DNA from: Bacteroidales bacterium UBA5536
GTDB taxonomy: Bacteria; Bacteroidota; Bacteroidia; Bacteroidales; F082
Direction of reading: 5' to 3'
Assembly (NCBI GenBank): GCA_002426795.1
Contig: DINQ01000011.1
Coordinates: 41,525-105,524 of the forward strand
Length of the DNA stretch: 64,000 nucleotides
Shown here: positions 1,763-15,559 of the stretch, piece by piece
How the letters are laid out: each line of letters opens with the position of its first letter
Numbering within the stretch: position 1 is the first letter of the stretch
Position numbers and translations under genes: made by a program
The notes under the pieces: generated by a model
Database searches by the model: none
The model's input: the letters and a program-made list of their open reading frames with translations, nothing else
What the model was told of the DNA's origin: nothing

Positions 1763-2123
1763 CACTCAGAAGAACTGATTTCGTGTCAATTAAAATAAGA
1801 TTAGCCGCAGAAAACAACAGGCACACTCAATAATTTTCTTCTTGTTCGATCTCATGCAAAATCATCAGTATTTGCACCGATAGTCGTATTGTTTAAGCTG
1901 GGTTAATATCTGTTAGCGGCCAATTCTACTCAGCTTCTCTCATATGCTTCCATGTCGAAAAATACAGAGCAGAGCATCAGTGTTTTGCCTGCACAGAAGC
2001 CAGCGATTGAATCGAGAAAGATTGAAACACATAGCTAAATTGAACGATGGATAAGCTTCATTTCAGGCAGCCATCAGCTACTGTTACTTAGTAAGTTTTT
2101 AAGTCCCTCGCGTAAAAAATATG

Positions 2124-2131
2124 TAGGTTTG
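2124..2131 (+). promoter_or_regulatory. candidate -7 promoter box (TAGGTTTG) for lnt
   Basis: Exact TAnnTTTG match ending 20 nt upstream of the lnt ATG. Confidence 0.3.
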
Positions 2132-2150
2132 CCGGCACAAGCTGTCATTT

Positions 2151-3767
2151 ATGAAACGAATTCATCTTTTAACGCTGTCGGTCCTGAGTGGCTTACTGTT
2201 GAGTGCCGCCTGGCCGGTACATGGCATCACTGCACTCATCTTTGTGGCTTTTGTGCCCTTGTTTTTTGTGCAGGAATACCTCGGAAACAACCGCGATGCA
2301 TTGGGTAAAGGACATCTGTTCCTTTACGCCTTTGTCACTTTTCTCATCTGGAACAGCCTCACCACATACTGGATATGGAACTCCACACCCGGGGGCGGCG
2401 TGGCTGCCATCGGGCTCAACAGCATCTTCATGGCCTCCGTTTTCTGGATGTACCACTACTCAAAGACGCGCCTCTACGACAACAAAAAGGGGAGCATCAT
2501 CATCGTGTTTTTCTGGCTCAGCTTTGAGCTGCTGCACCAGCACTGGGATCTCAACTGGCCCTGGCTGGCACTGGGTCATGCCTTTTCGCCCAAGAACCAC
2601 TGGATACAGTGGTACGAATTTACAGGCGTTCCGGGCGGCACGGTCTGGGTGCTGCTAATGAATCTGCTGGCCTTTCAGGTGGTGAAAGCCCTGCTCAACT
2701 TCAAAACGCAATCGAAACGCTTTTCACTGGCGCTTGTAGCGGCTGTGGTGCTCTGGATGGCACCCGTACTTTTTGGCGAGTACCTCTACCGCAACTACAT
2801 CGAAACAGGCGAGCAGGCCGAAGTGATCGTGGTGCAACCCAATTTCGATCCGTATACCGAACAATATGAACTATCGCCCGCTGTGGTGATCGAGCGTAAC
2901 CTGACGCTGGCTGCAAGCCTCATGAACCGCAAAGTTGATTTTGTGGTCTGTCCCGAATCAGCCATTCAGGAAAGCATCTGGCTGCCCCGCAAGGAAGAAT
3001 CTCCTTCACTCAACGAAATAAAAGCCTTTGTACATCAACATCCCGAAACGGCTGTCGTGATTGGCGCCAGCACCTTTGGCCCCGTGCCCGAAGGCAGCGA
3101 AAACGACCATGCAGCCCGCAAATACGCCAAAACTGAAGGCTATTATTATGCCTATAACACGGCATTTATGATCGACACCAGCAACCAACTGCCTTTTTAC
3201 CACAAATCGAAACTGACACCCGGGGTTGAGATGATGCCCTCCTGGTTCTTCCTGCGGCCGCTCAGCAGGTTGGCCATCGACCTGGGCGGCACAGTAGGCA
3301 CCCTGAAGATTGACGATGAACGTCGCGTTTTTGTGCATCCCAACGGGAAGTTCCGCGTTGGGCCCATGATTTGCTATGAATCGGTTTATGGTGAGTTTGT
3401 ATCGGGCTTTGTGCGCAACGGCGCCAACCTGCTCTTTATCATCACCAACGACGGCTGGTGGGGCAACACGCCCGGGCACCGCCAGCACATGGATTTTGCC
3501 ATCCTGCGTGCCATCGAAACAAGGCGCAGCATAGCCCGCTCTGCCAACACGGGTATCTCCGCTTTTGTGGATCAGCGCGGTGATGTTTTTCAGAAGACAC
3601 CCTATTGGGAACAGGCTGTTATCCGGCAGGCGATCACCACCAACGACCGCCTCACCTTTTATGTACGCTACGGCGACTATCTGTCGCGTACCTCAGTGTT
3701 TATTGCTGCCATCTTTTTACTGACCGCTTTCGCCAGGAGCAGAATGCGCTTTGGGGTAGGAAGATAG
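2151..3767 (+). CDS. lnt: apolipoprotein N-acyltransferase
   Basis: 538 aa. Multi-pass hydrophobic N-terminus followed by a CN-hydrolase domain with the E/K/C triad context (VCPESA, YHKSKLTPGVE, MICYESVYG) and NDGWWG. Confidence 0.9.
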   Translation: MKRIHLLTLSVLSGLLLSAAWPVHGITALIFVAFVPLFFVQEYLGNNRDALGKGHLFLYAFVTFLIWNSLTTYWIWNSTPGGGVAAIGLNSIFMASVFWMYHYSKTRLYDNKKGSIIIVFFWLSFELLHQHWDLNWPWLALGHAFSPKNHWIQWYEFTGVPGGTVWVLLMNLLAFQVVKALLNFKTQSKRFSLALVAAVVLWMAPVLFGEYLYRNYIETGEQAEVIVVQPNFDPYTEQYELSPAVVIERNLTLAASLMNRKVDFVVCPESAIQESIWLPRKEESPSLNEIKAFVHQHPETAVVIGASTFGPVPEGSENDHAARKYAKTEGYYYAYNTAFMIDTSNQLPFYHKSKLTPGVEMMPSWFFLRPLSRLAIDLGGTVGTLKIDDERRVFVHPNGKFRVGPMICYESVYGEFVSGFVRNGANLLFIITNDGWWGNTPGHRQHMDFAILRAIETRRSIARSANTGISAFVDQRGDVFQKTPYWEQAVIRQAITTNDRLTFYVRYGDYLSRTSVFIAAIFLLTAFARSRMRFGVGR

Positions 3768-4234
3768 AAGTCCGATGCCGATAGTTATCGGCAGGAGACC
3801 GGAGACGGAAGATGCACGAACAGTCATTATACCCGATGCCTGCTATTGACCCGACACTTTGGGAAGGCTCCCGAAGGCAAAGGGTAAGATAATAATTAAA
3901 ATGTGGCTTCGAGGGCCTCAGCCACCGAGTGTTGCGATGCCTGAGGCTCCCGAAGGCAGAGGAAAAAAGATGTCTGTTGCCGGAAGTCTTTAGCCAGCAT
4001 GGATAATTTGTCAAAGTCTACGGAACCCCTTATATCCCGCACACAGGAAGTCTAACACTGCTATTTCCATATGGTGCTTTATCAAAGGCATATGGTGCTT
4101 TGTTAAAGACAATTGATGTAGAAACTGTTTTATTTGCTGCGTCCGTTTTGAAACACGCCACCTGCCCGCCGACAATTGACCACAAATCCAATTCATATAA
4201 GGTCAGGTTTTTGCCGGGTGCTGTCTCTCCTGTT

Positions 4235-4549
4235 TCATATACAGGCTTGCAGAAGTCATATGAAGCCTCCGCAAACACGTATGGAGTCTCCGCAAACTCA
4301 TATGAGACGTTTCCATTTCCATAATTGGGAATTCCTATGTCGTATTGTGCGTCCGCCATGTCGTATTGTGCGACCCCCATCTCGTATTTTACGTCCCCCA
4401 TCTCGTATTGTGCGTCCGCCATGTCGTATTGTGCGTCCCCCAACTCGTATTGTGCGTCCCCCATCTCGTATTGCGCGTACCCCATGTCGTATGAAGCGAT
4501 TTCAAAGCCGTATGCTGCTTCCGCAAAGTCATATTTCCCATTTCCATGG
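4235..4549. repeat. 21-bp tandem repeat, about 15 phase-locked units (core of 7 near-identical units at 4340-4486, unit TCGTATTGTGCGTCCCCCATC)
   Basis: Unit starts read at 4235, 4256, 4277, 4298, 4319, 4340, 4361, 4382, 4403, 4424, 4445, 4466, 4487, 4508 and 4529. Two more in-phase copies (CATATGGTGCTTT) sit at 4068 and 4089. ORFs are open in three frames on both strands across it (4030..4485 on the minus strand; 4176..4553 and 4325..4612 on the plus strand). Confidence 0.85.
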
Positions 4550-4983
4550 ATAAAATCTGGAAAATTCCCAACCTGGGAAGGTTTGGCTAACCTGCCAGAA
4601 AGGAAGGAATGATGAATCGATAGGTGGTTCTCGTCATAATCAGAAGTACAACACCTTTCTTGAACTACTATTTAAACACCACATAAAAAGTGTTGAAATA
4701 TTTTTGCAAAAGCAAAAATATTTTTATTTTTAGGGCATGGAAAAACCAGCGCCCGCTGGTAGCTATCGCCTGTTCTGGGCATGGCGGGGTAAAGGGAAAA
4801 AAAATGAATACCGCTTGCGGTAGGAAATAGTGGTTTCTGTTATTGGAGTGTATTAAACATGCGACTCTGAAACGAATTTGAACTTTTATATGAAAACAAC
4901 TTTACTCAATTTGAAAAAAACACAGAAGAAATGTGATCGAATCTTAATTGGAACACAGGAAAGCGCAAAAATTAATCAGCTAT

Positions 4984-5008
4984 AAAAAAACTCCCACCGA
5001 AGCGGGAG
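4984..5008 (-). terminator. intrinsic terminator of the tracrRNA candidate
   Basis: Minus strand CTCCCGC-TTCG-GTGGGAG (7-bp stem with one G-U pair, UUCG tetraloop), followed by seven T residues. Confidence 0.75.
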
Positions 5009-5057
5009 TATAGGAATAATATCCTTCGGCATATAGCCTTGTTGTGATAAGATTAGG
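4984..5057 (-). ncRNA. tracrRNA candidate (about 74 nt)
   Basis: The minus strand reads CCUAAUCUUAUCACAAC AAGGCUAUAUGCC GAAGGAUAUUAUUCCUAUA CUCCCGCUUCGGUGGGAG UUUUUUU. The first 17 nt are complementary to repeat positions 1-17 except for a central 2-nt U/U mismatch. A nexus-like AAGGC..GCC hairpin, a second hairpin and an intrinsic terminator follow. The 5' end is inferred from the promoter at 5061-5091. Confidence 0.7.
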
Positions 5058-5060
5058 TTG

Positions 5061-5091
5061 CAAACATAAACATTGACATCAATAAAACAAA
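5061..5091 (-). promoter_or_regulatory. Bacteroidota-type promoter for tracrRNA (TTTG-N19-TATGTTTG)
   Basis: On the minus strand, TTTG lies at 5091-5088, then a 19-nt spacer, then TATGTTTG at 5068-5061. This matches the -33 TTTG / -7 TAnnTTTG consensus and spacing. The predicted start falls at about 5053-5057, the first bases of the anti-repeat. Confidence 0.55.
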
Positions 5092-5096
5092 ATAAA

Positions 5097-8000
5097 ATGG
5101 CAAAAAAAGTTTTAGGCCTTGATTTGGGCACCAACAGCATAGGTTGGGCAATCGTTGATAAAGAAAATCAAAAGATCTTGGATGCAGGAGTCCGGATATT
5201 CCAGGAAGGAGTAAAAAAAGATACGATAGGAAAAGGAGACAAGGAAGAAAGTAAAAACTCCGAACGCAGACAGCATCGTCAGGCACGCAGACTCAATTTT
5301 AGAAAACGAATTCGCAAAGCACATTTACTTAAACTCCTGATCGATAATCAAATGGTTCCTCTAACTATCGAGGAATTAAACAAATGGCGGTATTGGAACA
5401 AGAATGAAAAAAGTAGCGGCAAAATATTTCCACATTCAGAAGCTTTTGTCAATTGGCTAAGAATGAATCCATATCTGCTAAGAAAAAAAGGCTTGCATGA
5501 GGATTTAACCCTATTCGAGTTCGGCAGAATACTCTACCATTTTATCCAAAGGAGAGGCTTTATGTCCAATCGAAAGGGAAAAGCAAAAGATACTGGGGTG
5601 ATATATAAGGGAAAAGAGAACATGGATGGTGTTGACGAAACACGTGAGTTGTTGCAAAACAGAACCCTTGGTGAAGCTTTATTTGAAATACATCCAAAAG
5701 AAGGAGAGGCGTTTTTTATTCGAAAAGATATTAAAGGTAAAGAAGTAAGAGTAAGAGCCAGGTATACTTTGCGAGAAATGTATGTGGATGAATTTGATCG
5801 GTTATGGGAAAAGCAGTCTGCTCGACTAGGCCTTACTGATAAGATGGTGAGTATAAGAAGGAAGGTTTTCTTGAAAGGTACAATTAATCAAAAGAGAAAC
5901 CAGAATAAGCTCAATCATTTGATTGACAGATACGGAAAAGGAAATGTCATAGTCTATGATGATTCCATTGGCGTTTTGGAAAAGAAACCTTTAAAAGAGG
6001 TTTTGGCAGGAAAAATAGAATCAACTGAAGAAGGTGTGCGATTCAAAAGCAACGAGAGTGTGCTTTTTTGGCAGCGCCCTCTGCGTTCGCAAAAATCTTT
6101 ACTAAGTAAGTGCAGCTTCGAAAGCCAAAAGATTTTTGACAAGAAACTTGACAAGTGGATTGTTATTGGCAAAAGCCCTGCCTATACATCACATCCAGAT
6201 TTCGAGTTGTTTAGAGCCCATCAATTCATCAACAACATCAAAATTGGGAAAGCTAACCATTTGCTCAACGATGAACAAAGAGCAGATGTCCTTGACCTGA
6301 TTAATTCTAAGGATAAGGCGTTTGAATTCAAGGTGATTAAAAAAGCACTGAAATTACCACATGAGTTTTTTAATTACGAGGATGATTTTAAGGTTGCCGG
6401 CAATAAAACGCATGCCAGTGTTGCATCTGTATTCAGTAAAAAAGATTGGGAAGAAATTAAGGAGGAGATATGGCACGACCTGGTTTTTTATGAAGACAGT
6501 GATTTGCTTTCAGCAAAGTTGATGAGACGGTATCATCTTGATGAGCAATCAGCAAATAAGCTATCGAAAATCGAGTTAGAAGAGGGTTATGCAAGTTTAT
6601 CGTTAAAGGCAATTAGAAACATACTGCCTTTTCTTGAGATGGGTTATCGGTACTCTACAGCTGTTATTCTGGGCGGTGTAAAAAATTCATTTGGCGAGCG
6701 GTGGGAAAGGTTTAGTATTGTACATGACGAAATAATACGAGATGTTGTACGCATAACGGAAAACGAAAAACACAAAGAATTTGAGCTGGTTGAGCAGGTG
6801 AAATTGTATTTGTCTGATCCTGAAAACAAATATGGATTTAACAAAGATGACAAAGCATTTAGCAAACTCTATCATCCCTCTCAGGCTATTGAAAAGAAAG
6901 CACTTAAAACACGCTTATCTGAAATCGAAAATCTGCGAAATCCGATTGTTCAAAAGGCATTGTATGAAATGCGGAGACTAATCAATTCCTTGCTCGACCG
7001 CTATGAAGAACCCAATGGTGATGGGTTTAGATTTGATCGTATTCAGGTCGAATTTGGACGCGAGTTGAAAAACAACAAAAAACGAAGACAGGAAATGTCG
7101 ATTCGAAACCGAGAGAATGAAAATAAAAATGCATTGGCAAGGGAACGACTATCAGAATATGGGTTGCGCCCCAGCAGAAACAACATCACAAAATACTTGC
7201 TATATCAGGAAATAGAGCAAAAAAATGGAATTGTGCAATGTCCTTATACTGGACGAACAATTAGTATCAGTGACTTGCTGGGCAATGAAAACCGTTACCA
7301 GATCGAGCACATTGTACCACTTAGTGTTTCATTAGACGACAGCTATGGAAATAAAACTCTTTGCGAATCGAATTTTAACCGTGAAAAAGGGGAATTGACC
7401 CCCTATGAATTCTATCAACGCAATAGTTCGCGTGAACTGTGGGCCGCAAGCAGCTGGGAAGAAGTTGAACAACGAGCCTATAAATTACTGCCATATAGCA
7501 AAGCCAAGCGGTTTACGATGATGAAAAAACCAGGTGCAGACGATTTTATCCAGCGTCAGCTGAACGACACTCGCTATATCAGTAAAAAAGCAGCTGAAAT
7601 GCTTAGTGAAATATGTGATGATGTGAGGGTGTTGCCAGGGCAGCTCACTGCTGAGTTAAGACGGCTATGGGGGCTAAACCATTTGCTGCGTGATCCATTG
7701 CTAAAATCAAAAAATATAACAGTATCAACTGATGGCGAACTGGAGCATTTTGTGGTTTTTGACGAAAATGGTCAGGTAAAACAACTTTTACCTGCACAAA
7801 ACCAAAAACCCTCCAGTGGTTTTCCTGTGCTTTGCATGCCAGGTTATATAGATAAGAATGGGTTGTTTTCAGAAGAAAAGCGCTATAAGCAGCTTCGATT
7901 TGAACAAAACAAAACGGGATTTAAAGAGGGTAAATATTGGGCAAAAACGGAACTTAGCAATCCGCTTGATTTTACATTGATATTCACTGCGCGGCCTCCT

Positions 8001-9701
8001 TTAAGCAATAAGTACATAAGCCTAAGAGGACAAGTTAGTAAGGGAAGGTTTACGCACGATTCCATCAAGCAGAAAATAGCTGCAAATGTAGAAGATGGTA
8101 CTTATTGGGTAAGTTTTCCGGTGAAAAACTTCCAGCTGGTTCCTGCATCACGAGATCAAAAGCCTGCACCCGGCACAAAGGAAATTCTGCTCTTTGGCAA
8201 AGTGAATGGAGGCTTGTTTAGTAGCTATATTTTCGAAACCACCACCGACTTGCCTGATGGTCGCTACTGGCTGATATTAGAACCGGATACAACTACACCA
8301 GAATTTTTGAAAGCCCGCAATATACCTGAATCAAAAGCTGATAATGAGGTGTTTGTTGAAGGCGTAGTAGATGATTTGGGCAAATTTACCTCAGACCAGG
8401 ATCCTGATTTCAGCTTTAAAACTTCTCATGCCCCAGGCAAATATTTTGTTCGGTTTAGAGCTATGAAGACCGAGGGCTATTATCCACTACAAAATGACCC
8501 TCCTGTATTTGGTAAAAATGAAAATCTTGCTCTGGCATACACATGGGTAGATAAAGCCACTGGTGAAATCAAAATAGATGTACAAAAGAATCGTGAAGAC
8601 CAGCGTCACCATGCATTGGATGCCATTGTGGTTGCCATGAGTGAACTTAGCTATCTGAACCAGTTAAGTCGCTATTCAGGTCAAATCAAAGACTGGGAAC
8701 GTGGCAAGGATGAAAGACCTGTTTTTGATTTGCCCTGGTCTGAATTCTCTGATGCTGTAAATACTGCCATTGAACAGATTCTTGTGTCTTATGCACAAAA
8801 CAGAAAGGTGGTAAGCAAGATTAGTAAAATGGTTAATAAAGGGGGTAGAAGCTACAAAAGCTCTGGATTTGCAGCCAGAGGCCGTTTGCATAGAGAATTC
8901 TATTTTGGTCAGCACCCCAGACCTATTCTGCATCAAAAAAACCCGCAAACAGGAGATCTTTTATTTGAGAAAGATAAGTATGGAAACAAGCAGTACTATT
9001 ATCATATCCGAAAAGCGGTAACCACTATCCAGAACAACAAACATGTAGATAAGATCGTGGACGAAGCTATACGGCTATTGATAATCAGTAGACTTGAAAA
9101 GGAATACCATATTGATACCACTAAGCCATACAATATACCTTCCGATTTTTTTTACGACAAGGATAAAAAACCCAATTTATTCCTTCCAAATAAAAACGGC
9201 CATCCTGTGCCTGTAAAAAAAGTACGGATGCGCGAGAATATTGGGAATGCGGAACAACTAAAAAGTGATGTCAACCAATGGGTAAATCCCTACAACAATC
9301 ACCATGTGGTGATTTATGAAGACTTTGAGGGCAATTTACAGGAACAGGTAGTATCCTTGTGGGAGGTAGTCGAACGACTTAATCAGGGATTGAAAACTGT
9401 TCAATTGCCCGTGAATGGCAGACGAATAGTGGAAACCCTGCAGGAGAATGAGATGTTTTTGATTGGCCTGCCTCAAGATATGCGAGATAATCTGGATAAA
9501 AACTTGAATTCTGTCACAGCGCTTTCGCCTTACTTATATAGGGTGCAAAAAATATCGAGTATGTATTATACATTTCGTCAACATTTGGTTTCAAGTGTTT
9601 CAACGGAACAAGGTGAATTGAGCATAAGAAGTTTCAAAGCGTGGGAGGAGCTTAATCCTATTAGAGTTATAATAGATCAAACCGGAAAAATCAGTTTTTA
9701 G
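5097..9701 (+). CDS. cas9: CRISPR-associated endonuclease Cas9, type II-C, large variant (1534 aa)
   Basis: RuvC-I MAKKVLGLDLGTNSIGWA. Arg-rich bridge helix ERRQHRQARRLNFRKRIRK. RuvC-II IQVEFGRELK. HNH YQIEHIVPLS...GNKTLC...NREKG. RuvC-III DQRHHALDAIVVA. The ATG at 5097 is preferred over the TTG at 5073 used in the ORF track. Confidence 0.97.
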   Translation: MAKKVLGLDLGTNSIGWAIVDKENQKILDAGVRIFQEGVKKDTIGKGDKEESKNSERRQHRQARRLNFRKRIRKAHLLKLLIDNQMVPLTIEELNKWRYWNKNEKSSGKIFPHSEAFVNWLRMNPYLLRKKGLHEDLTLFEFGRILYHFIQRRGFMSNRKGKAKDTGVIYKGKENMDGVDETRELLQNRTLGEALFEIHPKEGEAFFIRKDIKGKEVRVRARYTLREMYVDEFDRLWEKQSARLGLTDKMVSIRRKVFLKGTINQKRNQNKLNHLIDRYGKGNVIVYDDSIGVLEKKPLKEVLAGKIESTEEGVRFKSNESVLFWQRPLRSQKSLLSKCSFESQKIFDKKLDKWIVIGKSPAYTSHPDFELFRAHQFINNIKIGKANHLLNDEQRADVLDLINSKDKAFEFKVIKKALKLPHEFFNYEDDFKVAGNKTHASVASVFSKKDWEEIKEEIWHDLVFYEDSDLLSAKLMRRYHLDEQSANKLSKIELEEGYASLSLKAIRNILPFLEMGYRYSTAVILGGVKNSFGERWERFSIVHDEIIRDVVRITENEKHKEFELVEQVKLYLSDPENKYGFNKDDKAFSKLYHPSQAIEKKALKTRLSEIENLRNPIVQKALYEMRRLINSLLDRYEEPNGDGFRFDRIQVEFGRELKNNKKRRQEMSIRNRENENKNALARERLSEYGLRPSRNNITKYLLYQEIEQKNGIVQCPYTGRTISISDLLGNENRYQIEHIVPLSVSLDDSYGNKTLCESNFNREKGELTPYEFYQRNSSRELWAASSWEEVEQRAYKLLPYSKAKRFTMMKKPGADDFIQRQLNDTRYISKKAAEMLSEICDDVRVLPGQLTAELRRLWGLNHLLRDPLLKSKNITVSTDGELEHFVVFDENGQVKQLLPAQNQKPSSGFPVLCMPGYIDKNGLFSEEKRYKQLRFEQNKTGFKEGKYWAKTELSNPLDFTLIFTARPPLSNKYISLRGQVSKGRFTHDSIKQKIAANVEDGTYWVSFPVKNFQLVPASRDQKPAPGTKEILLFGKVNGGLFSSYIFETTTDLPDGRYWLILEPDTTTPEFLKARNIPESKADNEVFVEGVVDDLGKFTSDQDPDFSFKTSHAPGKYFVRFRAMKTEGYYPLQNDPPVFGKNENLALAYTWVDKATGEIKIDVQKNREDQRHHALDAIVVAMSELSYLNQLSRYSGQIKDWERGKDERPVFDLPWSEFSDAVNTAIEQILVSYAQNRKVVSKISKMVNKGGRSYKSSGFAARGRLHREFYFGQHPRPILHQKNPQTGDLLFEKDKYGNKQYYYHIRKAVTTIQNNKHVDKIVDEAIRLLIISRLEKEYHIDTTKPYNIPSDFFYDKDKKPNLFLPNKNGHPVPVKKVRMRENIGNAEQLKSDVNQWVNPYNNHHVVIYEDFEGNLQEQVVSLWEVVERLNQGLKTVQLPVNGRRIVETLQENEMFLIGLPQDMRDNLDKNLNSVTALSPYLYRVQKISSMYYTFRQHLVSSVSTEQGELSIRSFKAWEELNPIRVIIDQTGKISF

Positions 9702-9704
9702 GTC

Positions 9705-10595
9705 ATGATAAGGCGAACCATCTTTATCAGTAATCCTGTCCGTTTGTCACTCAAAGATCAGCAAATGAAGATTGAGGTAAAAGAGAGCGGACAACAAACC
9801 TCCATACCTATTGAAGACGTTGGTTTTTTGGTAGTTGAAAACATGCAAGCCAGTGTGAGTGTGCCGTTATTGGCTGCATTGAATGAACAGAATGTGGGTG
9901 TGATTTTTTGCAATGCAAGCCATATGCCTTCTTCAATGTTGCTTACGCTGGACAGCCACAGTGTGCAAACTGAAATTTTTGCCTTACAGCTGAATGCCAG
10001 CGAACCGTTGAAGAAACAACTCTGGCAGCAAACTATCAAAGCAAAAATCCGAAATCAGAATTTTCATCTTTTGTCAAGAGGTATCGAAGCGCCTGGTTTG
10101 GCCAATCTGGTGAAACAGGTGCAAAGTGGCGACACCACCAACCGTGAGGGTATGGCCGCGCGTATCTATTGGCAAAGTTTGATGGGCAAAGGTTTTGTGC
10201 GCGACAGAAACGGTAGCCCTCCCAATTTTGTGTTTAATTATATCTACATTGTACTGCGTGCTGCTGTAGCACGTGCATTGGCAGGCTCTGGGCTGCTTCC
10301 GGCGATGGGAATCCACCATCACAATCGATATAATAGCTTTTGTTTAGCAGACGATATCATGGAACCTTACCGTCCCTTTGCAGATCAATTGGTGATGGAA
10401 CTGATTGAAGAAGAACCTGAACTGACAGTCTTGGAAACAGTGCACAAAATGAAGCTTCTAAAGTTGTTGCAGGCTGATGTAAGCACAGGAAAGCAAAAGC
10501 GGCCATTACTACTTGCGTTGAGTGAAACCACAGCATCACTTGCCCGGTGTTTCAGGGGTGAATCGAGAGAAATTACTTATCCCAAAATAAATTGA
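9705..10595 (+). CDS. cas1: CRISPR-associated endonuclease Cas1 (type II)
   Basis: 296 aa, starting 3 nt after the cas9 stop. Its length and position between cas9 and cas2 are typical of type II Cas1. Contains the acidic/His C-terminal core (GIHHHNRYNSFCLADDIMEPYRP). Confidence 0.93.
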   Translation: MIRRTIFISNPVRLSLKDQQMKIEVKESGQQTSIPIEDVGFLVVENMQASVSVPLLAALNEQNVGVIFCNASHMPSSMLLTLDSHSVQTEIFALQLNASEPLKKQLWQQTIKAKIRNQNFHLLSRGIEAPGLANLVKQVQSGDTTNREGMAARIYWQSLMGKGFVRDRNGSPPNFVFNYIYIVLRAAVARALAGSGLLPAMGIHHHNRYNSFCLADDIMEPYRPFADQLVMELIEEEPELTVLETVHKMKLLKLLQADVSTGKQKRPLLLALSETTASLARCFRGESREITYPKIN

Positions 10596-10937
10596 TTGGT
10601 GCAATGTACCCGACTAAATGCGTATCAGGTTATGTGGCTCTTTGTATTTTTCGATTTGCCGGTTACAACCAAAAAAGAACGCAAAGCGGCTACGCTATTT
10701 CGAAAAAAATTGGAAAAAGACGGATTCTATATGATGCAGTTTTCAGTTTATACCCGACATTGTGCCAGTCGAGAAAGTGCAGATGTACATACTAAACGTG
10801 TAAAAAGTGAGATACCAGAATATGGACAAGTTAGCATATTAATGATAACAGATAAACAGTATGCAGAAATATTGAATTATTTTGCACACAAGATGATTGA
10901 GCTGCCATCTGGAGGGCAACAATTAGAACTGTTTTAA
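10596..10937 (+). CDS. cas2: CRISPR-associated endoribonuclease Cas2
   Basis: 113 aa. RLNAYQVMWLFVFFDLPV is the typical type II Cas2 N-terminal beta-strand with the catalytic Asp. It abuts the cas1 stop. The start is TTG at 10596 or GTG at 10599. Confidence 0.9.
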   Translation: MVQCTRLNAYQVMWLFVFFDLPVTTKKERKAATLFRKKLEKDGFYMMQFSVYTRHCASRESADVHTKRVKSEIPEYGQVSILMITDKQYAEILNYFAHKMIELPSGGQQLELF

Positions 10938-11070
10938 TTGTATATTTGTTCTTTGAAATACTGTAGAAAAAAAAAAGTGATTTCTGAATCTTCACTTCTT
11001 GTTTGACATATGTTTTTTTTGATATAAAACAGTCTGAAAGCCTTGTAAATTAAGGCTAATGAGTCGGCAG
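10938..11070 (+). promoter_or_regulatory. CRISPR leader (133 nt, AT-rich) with a candidate -7 box TATATTTG at 10941-10948
   Basis: It lies between the cas2 stop and the first repeat, and the degenerate repeat is at the opposite end of the array. There is one exact TAnnTTTG match but no properly spaced -33 TTTG. Confidence 0.55.
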
Positions 11071-13739
11071 GTTGTGATTTGATTAGGAATTCAAGCTTAA
11101 GACATTTGAAATGTATAGGCGGCGCTGCTGGTTTTAGTTGTGATTTGATTAGGAATTCAAGCTTAAGACATTTGCAATGGCACAGGGCAGGTGCAATACA
11201 ACGTTGTGATTTGATTAGGAATTCAAGCTTAAGACATTAATCAGCACATTAATAAAAATAGCCGGTGAGTTGTGATTTGATTAGGAATTCAAGCTTAAGA
11301 CATTAATGAACGACCTAAAAAAACTACTCAACAAGTTGTGATTTGATTAGGAATTCAAGCTTAAGACATTAAAAGTACACCAGCACAACAAAACCGAACT
11401 GTTGTGATTTGATTAGGAATTCAAGCTTAAGACATTCTTTACGGGGCGCTTGCTTCCGGGTGCCGAGTTGTGATTTGATTAGGAATTCAAGCTTAAGACA
11501 TTACAACTTTGAAATTAACCTTCCATTAACCCGTTGTGATTTGATTAGGAATTCAAGCTTAAGACATTAAAACTTTGCAAAATGAAATTGCAAGCCTAGT
11601 TGTGATTTGATTAGGAATTCAAGCTTAAGACATTAATGCAAAAATTATCATTCGTCTCGAACTTGTTGTGATTTGATTAGGAATTCAAGCTTAAGACATT
11701 GGACAAGTAGGCATTGAGTATGACATTATGGTTGTGATTTGATTAGGAATTCAAGCTTAAGACATTTGATGTCGCGCATGAATGGGATACGTCTGGGTTG
11801 TGATTTGATTAGGAATTCAAGCTTAAGACATTTCCGGCTCTTTTTACTTGAGCATATTCACGGTTGTGATTTGATTAGGAATTCAAGCTTAAGACATTTT
11901 TTTTTCTAAGCTCGAGGAGTACATGTGTTGTGATTTGATTAGGAATTCAAGCTTAAGACATTCCAGAACCGAACGCGACGGGCAGCACGTTTGTTGTGAT
12001 TTGATTAGGAATTCAAGCTTAAGACATTGTTGGTGCTTTGCGCGCTGATTCGATAAGGGTTGTGATTTGATTAGGAATTCAAGCTTAAGACATTATCATT
12101 TTTTTCGTGCCACAGCCCGACGGCGTTGTGATTTGATTAGGAATTCAAGCTTAAGACATTAGAGAGTATTTGCAAAATTGTCCGTTCAGGTTGTGATTTG
12201 ATTAGGAATTCAAGCTTAAGACATTTATGCTTACTTCATCGAGCGGTTTGATTTTGTTGTGATTTGATTAGGAATTCAAGCTTAAGACATTGGTGCGGTC
12301 GAAACGGTTGAGGCGCTGCAGTTGTGATTTGATTAGGAATTCAAGCTTAAGACATTCCGCCAATCCACATCAATGCTTTTTGCCACGTTGTGATTTGATT
12401 AGGAATTCAAGCTTAAGACATTTCTTTACTGTCTGCAAAATATTGTTTAATAGTTGTGATTTGATTAGGAATTCAAGCTTAAGACATTAGACTGCCAGCG
12501 CGTTACAATCGAAACACAGTTGTGATTTGATTAGGAATTCAAGCTTAAGACATTCCTGAGTTTCATAAGGCACTTAACGCTATTGTTGTGATTTGATTAG
12601 GAATTCAAGCTTAAGACATTCTCGATCGCTTCAATTGCCGCGTGGTTGAGGTTGTGATTTGATTAGGAATTCAAGCTTAAGACATTAATCAAAACAATTT
12701 TGCTGTGGTTTTTAGTTGTTGTGATTTGATTAGGAATTCAAGCTTAAGACATTCTTCCGATTTTACCACCTTACGTAGCAGGGTTGTGATTTGATTAGGA
12801 ATTCAAGCTTAAGACATTTACGATTTGGAAAACGTTCGACTGCTGCCTGTTGTGATTTGATTAGGAATTCAAGCTTAAGACATTCATTTCGTCGTCGGCC
12901 TGCTTACCGTTCATGTTGTGATTTGATTAGGAATTCAAGCTTAAGACATTTTAAGCGTGTAGTATCATGGAAGAGTTAAGTTGTGATTTGATTAGGAATT
13001 CAAGCTTAAGACATTGTGGAGGTGATGAAGAGCTAACCACACCCCGTTGTGATTTGATTAGGAATTCAAGCTTAAGACATTTCAGAACCATGCCACATGC
13101 ACTCATGCCGTGTTGTGATTTGATTAGGAATTCAAGCTTAAGACATTCTGGTAGAATGAATTTAATGTCCATAACCTGTTGTGATTTGATTAGGAATTCA
13201 AGCTTAAGACATTCTGTTTTACTTCGTGTTGTTGGCTCATTAGTTGTGATTTGATTAGGAATTCAAGCTTAAGACATTAAACATGATCGCAACCATGAGG
13301 AAAACCGCGTTGTGATTTGATTAGGAATTCAAGCTTAAGACATTCAGCCGCCGACAACACCAAAACCGGAACCAGTTGTGATTTGATTAGGAATTCAAGC
13401 TTAAGACATTTCCTATCGATCACGCTCTTATGCACAAATGGTTGTGATTTGATTAGGAATTCAAGCTTAAGACATTGTATTGGAAAGGCTTGTGAGTTCG
13501 GTTGCTGTTGTGATTTGATTAGGAATTCAAGCTTAAGACATTTCGGTCCATTTTTCGTTGTAAGCGATAGTGTTGTGATTTGATTAGGAATTCAAGCTTA
13601 AGACATTAATAGAAGCACCCACCAAAAGCTGGCAGAAGTTGTGATTTGATTAGGAATTCAAGCTTAAGACATTTCAAGTTCGATGCTGTTCGTGATCTCG
13701 TGAGTTGTGATTTGGTTAGGAAGTCAAGTCTACTTCCCT
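11071..13739 (+). CRISPR. CRISPR array: 40 identical 36-nt repeats GTTGTGATTTGATTAGGAATTCAAGCTTAAGACATT plus one degenerate terminal repeat; 40 spacers
   Basis: I located all 41 repeat starts by reading, from 11071, 11137 and 11203 through 13638 to the degenerate copy at 13704. Spacer lengths are 32 of 30 nt, 6 of 29 nt, 1 of 28 nt and 1 of 31 nt. Orientation follows from tracrRNA complementarity and the terminal degenerate repeat. Confidence 0.98.
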
Positions 13740-15559
13740 AATCCACTGATCCTGCTGGCATTCCAGGTTCCGGCTCCGGTTGTACCGGCGCCATCTGGTC
13801 CATACGTCCAGCTCCCTACGCCTACACCTGAGCTGTAGAAAGTACCGCTATAATTGAATATATTCTGCGGTGTTGTCCATGCTGCATAGCCATCATCATT
13901 CAACACACCAATCCCGTAATCGCCCCAGCCTAACAGGTCATGACCCTGTATGCCCATTTCGGACGTCATATTGTAGGGGGCCGAAAATCCCTCGTTTACA
14001 AGTGTACCGGTCATCGAAAATGTCCAGGTTCCATCATAAGGACCTGTCTGAACGCTGTTTGCTTCCTGGGTGATTGTAAAGCTTTTATCCGCAACCTGGA
14101 TGGTGCCCGATCTTTCTTCGGTCAGTCCGTTTGCCAGTACCGAATAGCTGACTTCACCGTTTCCGCTGCCCGATGCCCCGTTTGTGACGGTGATCCATTC
14201 AGCCACCGACACAGCCGTCCATGCACAGCCATTGTCTGTTGATACCGCAAAGGAGCCGCTTCCTCCGTTTGCAGCTATCTGCACAGAACTCGCAGATAAC
14301 CCAAAGGCACAATCAGCAGCTGACAACACATTGCCAAAGGCTTCGCCAAGTGAAGTGCAGCCGTCGATCAGGCTTTTGATTGCGCCGGACGCGTCAGGAT
14401 AAATCTGGTCCGTCACAATGCCACGCAGCATCTCTTCGATACGGCCCACGCCTTGCTGAACAGCCTGAGTGGCAGCCTGGCTATTCACATTGGCAAGGGC
14501 AGCTCCCGTCACAACCTCTAGCCCGCCAGTTCCAATTGTAGCATACAAGATGGCTGCAGCAGGCAAGGCCAGTGCAGCTGCAACCGGTATTTCTGCTGCC
14601 AGGCCAGTCAAAGCAATAAAACCAATTGCCACGCTGCCGGCACCAAAGATCACCTTACCTGCCGTATTGATGGCATCGGGCAGTGAGGAAGCCACGCACT
14701 GCATATGGTTGGAGACAGCGCCGTTGTTGATGCCGGCGCCCAAATCGCCCGTAACATTGTAAGCACTTTCGCTACATGGATTATAAAGCATGGCTTTTTC
14801 AGTATGAATCAGGCCAATTTGATCGGATAAATTCGACTCGCTTAGCGTGTAATAGAGTGCCTGTAAAAACCTGTCGCACTGGGCGAGTTGCGAAACACTG
14901 ATGTTTATTTCGAAGCCGTTGATCGTGCCAAAATGATAGGTTAACTGAGGATCGTCGGATGTATTTACCAGCTTATGGAGATCGGCATGCAGTTTTTCGA
15001 GGTTGTTCAGGTTGGCGCCCAAAGTGAAGAGCATATCAGGATTGGCATGCCCGCTGTTGGCAACCTCCATCTGTAGCTGTTTCAGGTAGTTGATCTGTTC
15101 TTCGAGAAAGACAATAGTCGCCTCACCCGGTTTTGCGTTCACGACAGGCAAATCTTTTATGATAAAACTATTGATGATATTGGAGCCACGTTCGATCAGT
15201 GCATTTTTGTCAATGAGTTGCACGTCCACTGTACCTTCAGCAAACTGACCACTTGTGGCATCGACAAAGGGAGGTACAGCCACCACCAGCTTCCCGGCAG
15301 CATTCTGCAAAACAGGCACATCCACTGAATAACCTGCCTGATCCGAAAAACGTACCCAAAGCTGTTCCCCCTCAACAAATCCCACGCCCTGAATGACCAG
15401 CAGCGAAGTTGGTATGGCAGAGTGGCTGCTCATATTTTGAATCCTGAAAGAATTGTCAGGTGGTGTATCGCCATCATCCTTGCCTGCAGGTTTACAGCTG
15501 ATAACGGTTGTTACAACGATGAAAAACAGTGAAACCAAAAAGCCTACATGCGTTTTCAT
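13730..15559 (-). CDS. hypothetical lipoprotein with an internal Gly/Ala-rich hydrophobic hairpin and a BACON-like domain
   Basis: 609 aa. Signal peptide plus lipobox (VISCKP). Hydrophobic stretch GKVIFGAGSVAIGFIALTGLAAEIPVAAALALPAAAILYATIGTGGLEVVTGAALA. BACON-like segment LSASSVQIAANGGSGSFAVSTDNGCAWTAVSVAEWITV...RSGTIQVADKSFTITQ. Confidence 0.6.
   Translation of the reverse strand: MKTHVGFLVSLFFIVVTTVISCKPAGKDDGDTPPDNSFRIQNMSSHSAIPTSLLVIQGVGFVEGEQLWVRFSDQAGYSVDVPVLQNAAGKLVVAVPPFVDATSGQFAEGTVDVQLIDKNALIERGSNIINSFIIKDLPVVNAKPGEATIVFLEEQINYLKQLQMEVANSGHANPDMLFTLGANLNNLEKLHADLHKLVNTSDDPQLTYHFGTINGFEINISVSQLAQCDRFLQALYYTLSESNLSDQIGLIHTEKAMLYNPCSESAYNVTGDLGAGINNGAVSNHMQCVASSLPDAINTAGKVIFGAGSVAIGFIALTGLAAEIPVAAALALPAAAILYATIGTGGLEVVTGAALANVNSQAATQAVQQGVGRIEEMLRGIVTDQIYPDASGAIKSLIDGCTSLGEAFGNVLSAADCAFGLSASSVQIAANGGSGSFAVSTDNGCAWTAVSVAEWITVTNGASGSGNGEVSYSVLANGLTEERSGTIQVADKSFTITQEANSVQTGPYDGTWTFSMTGTLVNEGFSAPYNMTSEMGIQGHDLLGWGDYGIGVLNDDGYAAWTTPQNIFNYSGTFYSSGVGVGSWTYGPDGAGTTGAGTWNASRISGLGK

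Follow-up and report, generated by a model that had tools for sequence, protein, structure and literature searches.

Few enzymes have been studied as much as Cas9, but the Cas9 encoded in the window (the whole stretch of DNA analyzed here, 64,000 nucleotides of contig DINQ01000011.1 from Bacteroidales bacterium UBA5536) contains a long segment that the solved structures searched lack, which raises the question of what this segment is and what it could do beside the RuvC active site. The LRRLWGL motif of this type II-C protein (amino acids [aa] 854 to 860) ends at nucleotide (nt) 7676, and the RuvC-III motif DQRHHALDA (aa 1168 to 1176) starts at nt 8598, leaving 307 aa between them. An initial annotation, made from the DNA alone, had reported an insert of about 300 aa between these motifs; its coordinates were exact, and the four motif pairs it had picked out were found where it had placed them. 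It seems well established from the analyses below that the insert is a genuine, clade-specific, noncatalytic, compact, independently folding all-β repeat domain beside the RuvC active site. The best explanation overall of its role, put forward here tentatively, is that this clade-specific β-repeat domain serves as a noncatalytic steric wall or cap at RuvC and the path of the non-target strand.

Position and novelty of the insert

The equivalent loop in small type II-C Cas9s has 0 to 32 aa, and in nine such proteins fetched from genomes it measured 16 to 32 aa. Pfam RuvC_III broke at residue ∼861 of the window protein and resumed past the insert, as did NCBIfam TIGR01865 and the Cas9 models of PADLOC. 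The RuvC/HNH core and the flanking pattern W-x-[FL] N KNRE..HHA.DA were in common with the compact type II-C Cas9s (GeoCas9, 9ar4; NmeCas9, 6jdq; and genomic proteins of ∼1,000 to 1,100 aa), and GeoCas9-type chains carry no insert, since residues 861 and 1163 of the query both mapped to chain residue 710. The 307 residues make up a fifth of the window protein and the greater part of the roughly 450 to 500 residues by which it exceeds type II-C Cas9s of ∼1,000 to 1,100 aa, in agreement with the earlier proposal that the insert explains much of the unusual size.

The closest sequence match in the PDB to the window Cas9 was CbCas9 from Chryseobacterium (8iyq/8wmh; 1,442 aa; E value, 2e-47), also a large type II-C Cas9 of the Bacteroidota. 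CbCas9 has an insertion in the same loop (...WGLNDVWNDLILPRFERMNQLTNSKDFTAWNENHQKFLPTVPIEFSKGFSKKRIDHRHHALDA), and its hairpin KDFTAWNENHQKFLPTVP aligned with the segment EHFVVFDENGQVKQLLPAQNQKP at the N-terminal end of the insert, hereafter U0. The two proteins differ in that only ∼50 residues separate WGLN from HRHHALDA in CbCas9, and none of the four modules described below is found there. The presence of the hairpin in a Cas9 without modules suggests that U0 is older than the four modules.

Pfam, NCBIfam, and PADLOC returned no match of any kind to the insert or its modules, a profile of the modules found no match among PDB sequences, and none of the 40 PDB Cas9 sequences that matched the window protein covered aa 894 to 1161. 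Searches of the available literature found no description of the insert. Together with the Foldseek results below, these searches bore out the suggestion that it could be a new accessory domain. The host proteins are already in databases, labeled simply Cas9; it is the inserted domain that is without a Pfam, NCBIfam, or PADLOC model or a solved structure, and a Pfam family could be created for the module, which has none at present.

Several known domain types were compared with the insert. The described Cas9 domains (REC, bridge helix, WED, PI, HNH, and the C-terminal helix of CbCas9) were set aside, as the insert had no sequence match to a solved Cas9 and no Cas9 chain was among the 50 Foldseek matches listed. 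Searches with the insert or with 111 module sequences gave no Pfam match to TOBE, TOBE_2, or OB families, a single BRCA-2_OB1 match at an E value of 0.14 being noise. The Ig-like or transthyretin-like sandwich models (CarboxypepD_reg, SdrD_B, and CARDB), which span ∼80 to 110 aa, were not matched by the insert. Insertion of an intein or mobile element was rejected on the absence of Pfam matches to inteins, transposases, or homing nucleases and on the uniform presence and fixed length of the insert in the clade. More broadly, an artifact (chimeric assembly, an inserted intein or mobile element, or a frameshift misread as protein) is a negligible possibility: the segment lies in frame within a single 4.6-kb open reading frame (ORF), its GC content matches that of the rest of cas9, it is seen in independent assemblies, isolates, and metagenomes, its predicted structure is confident, and no Pfam family was matched.

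Repeat modules and predicted fold

Four tandem modules of ∼55 to 60 aa had been proposed within the insert, here termed U1 to U4 (Table 1). When the window sequence was tested alone by Smith-Waterman alignment against 2,000 shuffles, U2-U3 was the only significant pair (z = 5.0; 0 of 2,000 shuffles); pairs with U1 were marginal (z, 2.1 to 2.5), and U2-U4 and U3-U4 were not significant. For comparison of profiles, the alignment of 117 orthologous inserts was cut into units, and the unit profiles were compared using hhalign with reversed-sequence controls. All six pairs of U1 to U4 aligned (probability, 97 to 99%; E values, 1e-11 to 1e-18; 36 to 56 columns), compared with E values of 0.05 to 0.5 for the reversed controls. 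The proposed repeat structure was thus recovered in full at the profile level, whereas pairwise significance in the window sequence itself was limited to one pair. Judged by these family profiles, and not by the single sequence, the four modules are homologous. The consensus of 111 module sequences, hhhh-G-x-V-(4)-F ... G-x-Y-W ... P, was the pattern originally noted.

The complete modules are bordered by two shorter segments, U0 and U5. In many orthologues, U0 matched only the C-terminal half of the module hidden Markov model (HMM; profile positions 22/31 to 56), with independent E values (iE) of 1e-8 and 7e-5 in P0146 and P0130, respectively. A fused U5+U0 profile aligned with U1, U3, and U4 (hhalign E values, 2e-5 to 1e-4; reversed controls, 0.055 to 0.24). 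From these profile matches, U0 and U5 are the probable halves of a fifth module split across the ends of the insert, and by completing each other they would bring chain entry and exit together, as an inserted domain requires. The resemblance of U0 to the second half of a module also makes it plausible that the domain grew from a hairpin by tandem duplication. Within U5, aa 1146 to 1163 of the window protein (nt 8532 to 8585) read LALAYTWVDKATGEIKIDVQK, departing from the family consensus L.EG.IWVDK.TGEIKFDPKK.

AlphaFold2 (AF2) was run on aa 849 to 1181 with 116 homologues as the alignment and on U3 as an isolated module. Structure prediction had been proposed as a check on the insert, and it yielded a compact, all-β domain flanked by the W-G-L helix on one side and the catalytic helix on the other, with a mean predicted local distance difference test (pLDDT) score of 89.9 and a predicted template modeling (pTM) score of 0.79. 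The high pTM value points to a single compact domain and not to a string of separate beads. Every module was predicted to contain a first strand (b1) of 8 to 9 residues, short b2 and b3 strands, a 9-residue b4, and a tail strand, which in two modules is continuous with b4. In the isolated U3 (pLDDT, 90.2), b1 to b4 formed four strands and the tail was unstructured, so the tail strand probably pairs with the neighboring module. The predicted module layout is b1 (hhhxGxV), b2 (xFxS), b3, and b4 [(D)GxY[WF]hxh], followed by a tail strand dependent on a neighboring module.

Foldseek was used to compare the insert model with 350,542 PDB chains, and no match was identified at an E value of ≤1e-3; the 50 matches listed included neither a Cas9 chain nor a propeller, and the best whole-domain template modeling (TM) score on the query (TMq) was <0.2. 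The same model had no match in BFVD, and a single module had no match in the PDB at an E value of ≤1e-3. Matches to GFP-like, capsid, and baseplate proteins were rejected as noise (TM < 0.12; root mean square deviation [RMSD], >20 Å). The only credible local resemblance, with E values of 0.04 to 5 and no sequence similarity, was to the TOBE-like regulatory barrels of the ABC ATPases GlcV and FbpC. Two consecutive modules superposed over 117 columns on the double β-barrel C-terminal domain of GlcV (1oxs/1oxx/1oxu; Foldseek probability, 0.94 to 0.99; E value, 0.04 to 0.09; RMSD, 5.6 to 6.7), and the best single-module TM score was to the FbpC regulatory domain (3fvq; TMq, 0.41 to 0.50; E value, ∼5).

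These matches bear on whether the insert could be a built-in binder of single-stranded DNA (ssDNA), in which the non-target strand, once displaced, would be held by OB/TOBE-like barrels in the manner of RPA or SSB, stabilizing the R-loop and feeding the strand to RuvC. Both the GlcV superposition and the FbpC score would favor such a binder, as would the conserved F, Y, and W residues in every module. The Foldseek E values are not significant, however, TOBE and OB families were absent from the Pfam results, and the isolated module was predicted as a four-stranded sheet rather than a closed barrel. The conserved aromatics, which belong to the core pattern of the repeat, are probably buried.

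A more specific possibility, though a doubtful one, is that the insert is a closed ring of five strand-exchanging β-meander modules with an unrecognized fold, which would equip the clade with its own, new means of regulation beside the RuvC active site; it might, for example, gate or trim the non-target strand or recruit a partner from the host or from the Cas proteins. Such a five-unit closed arrangement would have no counterpart among the Foldseek matches. β-Propellers with "Velcro" closure likewise consist of approximately four-stranded antiparallel meanders of ∼55 aa, and partial units at their two ends complete one unit so that the termini meet, as U0 and U5 would do; the insert differs from them in that some of its strands are predicted to be 16 to 17 residues long, which is atypical of blades. 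No similar solved structure was identified in the PDB and BFVD searches, which does not prove a new fold, and there is a realistic chance that both the fold of the insert and the regulation of RuvC that it would provide are new.

Distribution, conservation, and candidate roles

Full-length searches with the window Cas9 and with its orthologue from Flavobacterium orientale each identified >5,500 Cas9 clusters at an E value of <1e-30, of which the best 120 were listed. Among the listed full-length proteins carrying both motifs (117 and 64 for the two queries), all had an insert of 304 to 317 aa except for one of 345 aa. Across all searches, ∼200 full-length relatives were examined, and all carried the insert, at 301 to 323 aa with a single exception, the 345-aa insert already mentioned. 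Overall identity to these relatives was 45 to 100%, and identity within the insert fell to 26 to 33%. The clade includes Bacteroidales, Marinilabiliales, Flavobacteriales, and Neomarinimicrobiota; named carriers are Gaoshiqia, Mangrovibacterium, F. orientale, F. marginilacus, Kaistella, Halpernia, Bizionia, Gelidibacter, and Lutibacter, and metagenome-assembled genomes (MAGs) with the insert were assigned to Bacteroidales, Marinilabiliales, Prolixibacteraceae, "Chlorobi," and Neomarinimicrobiota. Three near-identical Cas9s in one 80%-identity cluster (L001, P0123, and P0124) were labeled Bacteroidales, Acidaminococcaceae, and Cloacimonadota in different MAG records, which is probably due to misbinning of short contigs and not to true cross-phylum spread. 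No relative was found in viral contigs. The Cas9s of Flavobacterium columnare and F. psychrophilum were absent from the best 120 matches of the Flavobacterium query, and a paper on these experimentally studied proteins gives no domain analysis; no link between them and the insert is claimed.

When the module profile was searched against 1.84 billion representative proteins, 45 proteins were identified at an E value of ≤1e-3, ∼30 of which were Cas9s or Cas9 fragments; every one of the Cas9s with both motifs had an insert of 301 to 323 aa. The remainder were giant surface proteins with SdrD_B, CarboxypepD_reg, CARDB, or PPC repeats. These Ig-like or transthyretin-like repeats have a "dGxY-h-x-h" β-hairpin motif in common with the modules and were rejected as homologues, as they matched the ∼20- to 25-residue hairpin motif only (profile positions ∼15 to 40), with significance summed over 6 to 10 repeats. 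In this representative set, the module is convincingly found in this Cas9 clade only. The 307-aa insert used alone as a word-index query retrieved a single fragment, even though hundreds of full-length relatives carry a homologous insert; this is an artifact of index sensitivity for fast-evolving domains and not a sign of rarity.

The initial annotation had asked how widespread the insert is and how its copy number varies. The insert proved widespread, being carried by hundreds of Cas9s of the Fibrobacterota-Chlorobiota-Bacteroidota (FCB) group, whereas its copy number is essentially fixed. Cas9s with one to three modules were sought in genome contigs and in the 1.84 billion representatives and were not found; apparent partial matches (L018 to L026) were ordinary small Cas9s with loops of 16 to 32 aa. 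In P0046, the protein with the 345-aa insert, U0 is followed by an additional, incomplete module (module HMM positions 1 to 42); this is the sole copy number variant in the ∼200 full-length proteins.

This fixed architecture argues against neutral structural decoration, i.e., a hairpin that was expanded by tandem duplication and retained because its removal destabilizes RuvC. Length is held within ∼20 residues, five units are kept across Bacteroidota orders and into Neomarinimicrobiota at insert identities down to 26%, and decay or variation, including intermediates of one to three modules, would be expected of a neutral element. Cas9 orthologues tolerate many clade-specific insertions, and the insert is less conserved than the rest of the protein and shows no conserved polar site, all of which would suit a neutral origin; on balance we consider it quite unlikely.

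Mean pairwise identity was 40% in the insert and 57% in the rest of Cas9; within the insert, the RuvC-proximal U5 reached 67%, and the other segments ranged from 31 to 43%. This contrast, in which only U5 is highly conserved, suggests scaffold-like evolution. Apart from a single Asp, the near-invariant positions belong to the repeat core and are G, F, Y, W, and P. No conserved polar cluster was seen in the orthologue alignment of the insert, which suggests that it is noncatalytic and has no specific ligand site.

Retention of fold and length while the surface diverges is also what would be expected of a platform for protein docking or oligomerization, whose variable surface might bind another protein (Cas1-Cas2 when spacers are acquired, a repair or replication factor of the host, or another Cas9 molecule) or might shield Cas9 from anti-CRISPRs; docking or shielding would explain the faster evolution of the insert. 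The domain is acidic and bears no catalytic signature, and its nearest fold matches are regulatory domains of ABC ATPases, which would be in keeping with such a role. Closed β-repeat domains are commonly interaction platforms. A protein partner is used by the large Bacteroidota relative CbCas9, whose partner PcrIIC1 binds the C-terminal helix of Cas9 and not this loop (PMC13153721), so that this precedent counts both for docking in general and against docking at the insert. Neighborhood clustering of 17 related loci together with the window identified only cas9, cas1, and cas2 as conserved genes. A PcrIIC1-like accessory partner gene was rejected on this basis, as no gene beyond cas1 and cas2 was conserved beside the insert-bearing cas9 genes. 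A docking or anti-anti-CRISPR role is rather doubtful when taken by itself, and we rank it nearly as likely as the steric role.

The position of the insert provides a clue to the proposed steric role. In SpCas9, K974 and R976 are residues of the RuvC active site that contact the non-target strand, and their mutation (K974A/R976A) selectively impairs non-target-strand cleavage (PMC5680257). In a motif alignment made by eye, K1164-N-R1166-E-D-Q-R-H-H at the exit of the insert corresponds to K974-V-R976...H982-H983 of SpCas9, which has no domain there. The insert thus ends 1 to 3 residues from positions whose SpCas9 counterparts keep the non-target strand in place at RuvC, and the early suggestion that it faces this strand would be consistent with that alignment.

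The same position would suit an ssDNA binder. Over the 117 orthologues, the insert has a median net charge of -5 (pI 5.7) compared with +48 (pI 9.5) for the rest of Cas9, and this acidity argues against a simple or general DNA-binding role. With the net charge negative in most orthologues, and with the Foldseek and Pfam results given above, ssDNA binding by the domain appears unlikely.

A steric or scaffold role at the entrance to the groove for the non-target strand is favored because of the position, rigidity, and acidity of the insert and its lack of conserved functional residues. The mechanism proposed would involve a domain of four complete ∼56-aa β-meander modules and a probable split fifth, placed in the loop from the W-G-L helix to the RuvC-III catalytic helix and possibly expanded from a short CbCas9-type β-hairpin, with the chain exiting and reentering RuvC at one place. 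Such a domain could form a rigid wall or cap beside the active site that shapes or gates access of the displaced strand or of proteins and other macromolecules, and the gating would be steric rather than a matter of general electrostatic DNA binding.

Several points weigh against this explanation. The steric-gate role is argued by exclusion and from position. The AF2 models cover the insert alone and one module, and how the domain is turned toward RuvC, HNH, REC, and DNA lies outside both. The weak resemblance to TOBE-like (OB-type) barrels in GlcV would allow for ligand or ssDNA binding, and conserved K/R-P motifs occur in the linkers between modules; the whole-domain charge is compatible with a local basic or aromatic binding strip. 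With regard to the architecture, U0 of the window protein itself scored an iE of only 0.14 with the module HMM, and the fused U5+U0 profile failed against U2 (E value, 0.13), so the statistics behind closure by a fifth module are weak.

If the domain does control access to RuvC or recruit partners, it would add a new regulatory layer to CRISPR systems that are widespread in environmental and fish-associated Bacteroidota. Were the closed-ring regulatory proposal true, this clade would cut or hand over DNA unlike all characterized Cas9s, and the loop would offer a natural place, already validated by evolution, for grafting large domains beside the RuvC center. As the loop naturally accepts a compact domain of 300 residues, it is a candidate site for engineered fusions near the displaced strand, and the insert is an obvious candidate for deletion in shrinking these large Cas9s.

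The cas locus and its surroundings

Coordinates of the insert, its units, and the surrounding cas locus are given in Table 1.

Table 1. Features of the cas9 insert and the type II-C locus in the window
Feature	Position (nt)	Strand	Evidence
LRRLWGL helix (aa 850-864), last RuvC element ahead of the insert	7644-7688	+	AF2 helix H2-16 (model residue i = aa 848+i); motif position
Entire insert, 307 aa (aa 861-1167)	7677-8597	+	Motif positions; insert lengths in orthologues
Low-confidence linker (aa 861-880)	7677-7736	+	AF2 10-residue-block mean pLDDT 52-76, model residues 11-30 (aa 861-878), without regular secondary structure
U0, N-terminal half-module (aa 881-909; strands 882-888, 894-899)	7737-7823	+	Module HMM in orthologues; AF2 strands; CbCas9 alignment
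Module U1 (aa 910-971)	7824-8009	+	hhalign versus U2, U3, U4: E 2e-14, 1e-15, 1e-15; module HMM iE 1e-14; AF2 strands
Module U2 (aa 972-1028)	8010-8180	+	hhalign; AF2; module HMM; single-sequence U2-U3 significant
Module U3 (aa 1029-1082), best-conserved full module	8181-8342	+	hhalign U3-U4 E 1e-18; mean pairwise identity 43%
Module U4 (aa 1083-1141)	8343-8519	+	hhalign; AF2; module HMM
U5, C-terminal half-module (aa 1142-1164; strands 1143-1151, 1158-1163)	8520-8588	+	67% mean pairwise identity, most conserved part of the insert
K1164-N-R1166, RuvC reentry	8586-8594	+	By-eye sequence alignment to SpCas9 K974-V-R976
RuvC-III catalytic motif DQRHHALDA	8598-8624	+	Motif; R, H, H, A, D, A invariant in 117 sequences
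cas9 coding sequence, 1,534 aa, type II-C, host of the insert	5097-9701	+	ORF and translation from MAKK (MAKKVLGLDLG)
cas1	9705-10595	+	Pfam Cas_Cas1 3e-27
cas2	10596-10937	+	Pfam CRISPR_Cas2 9e-19
CRISPR array, 36-nt repeat GTTGTGATTTGATTAGGAATTCAAGCTTAAGACATT, period ∼66 nt, ∼38-39 units	11071-13679	+	Tandem Repeats Finder

The identity of the host gene was clear. The cas9 product scored 521.8 bits with TIGR01865 (cutoff, 100) and matched Pfam HNH_4 (6e-20) and RuvC_III (1.9e-31, in two stretches), and the Cas9 motifs DLGTNSIGWA, EHIVP, and RHHALDA were all present. A 1,534-aa protein in public data (P0002) was 100% identical to it. The mechanically called ORF opens at a TTG codon eight codons upstream of the MAKK start.

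The locus is a minimal type II-C system consisting of cas9-cas1-cas2 and a CRISPR array, without csn2 or cas4, and the ORF list of the window contained no additional ORF in the interval from cas2 to the array. On the plus strand, positions 5041 to 5074 resemble the CRISPR repeat (28 of 36 positions matching, with 2 gaps) and end 23 nt before the cas9 ATG; read on the minus strand, this sequence would be a putative anti-repeat of a divergently transcribed tracrRNA. An Rfam match to rsmX at positions 4987 to 5077 on the minus strand overlaps this stretch and was nonsignificant (E value, 0.41). The last regular unit of the array is closely followed by an incomplete, degenerate repeat at positions 13704 to 13728 (23 of 25 positions matching), which is probably a decayed terminal repeat.

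GC content was 36 to 42% across the cas9-cas1-cas2-array block (positions 4500 to 13500), compared with 50 to 54% in the flanks (positions 2000 to 4000 and 13500 to 15000), which suggests a horizontally acquired island. To the left lies a gene for an lnt-like apolipoprotein N-acyltransferase (positions 2151 to 3767). The 1.3-kb gap between this gene and cas9 contains tandem repeats at positions 4068 to 4513, with a 21-nt unit, a 63-nt superunit, and ∼7 copies (84 to 92% matches), and these yield repetitive ORFs on both strands (e.g., MGDAQYELGDAQYDMADAQYE...). To the right, an ORF of 609 aa on the minus strand (positions 13730 to 15559) begins with a hydrophobic stretch and a Cys, which by eye could be a possible lipoprotein signal.

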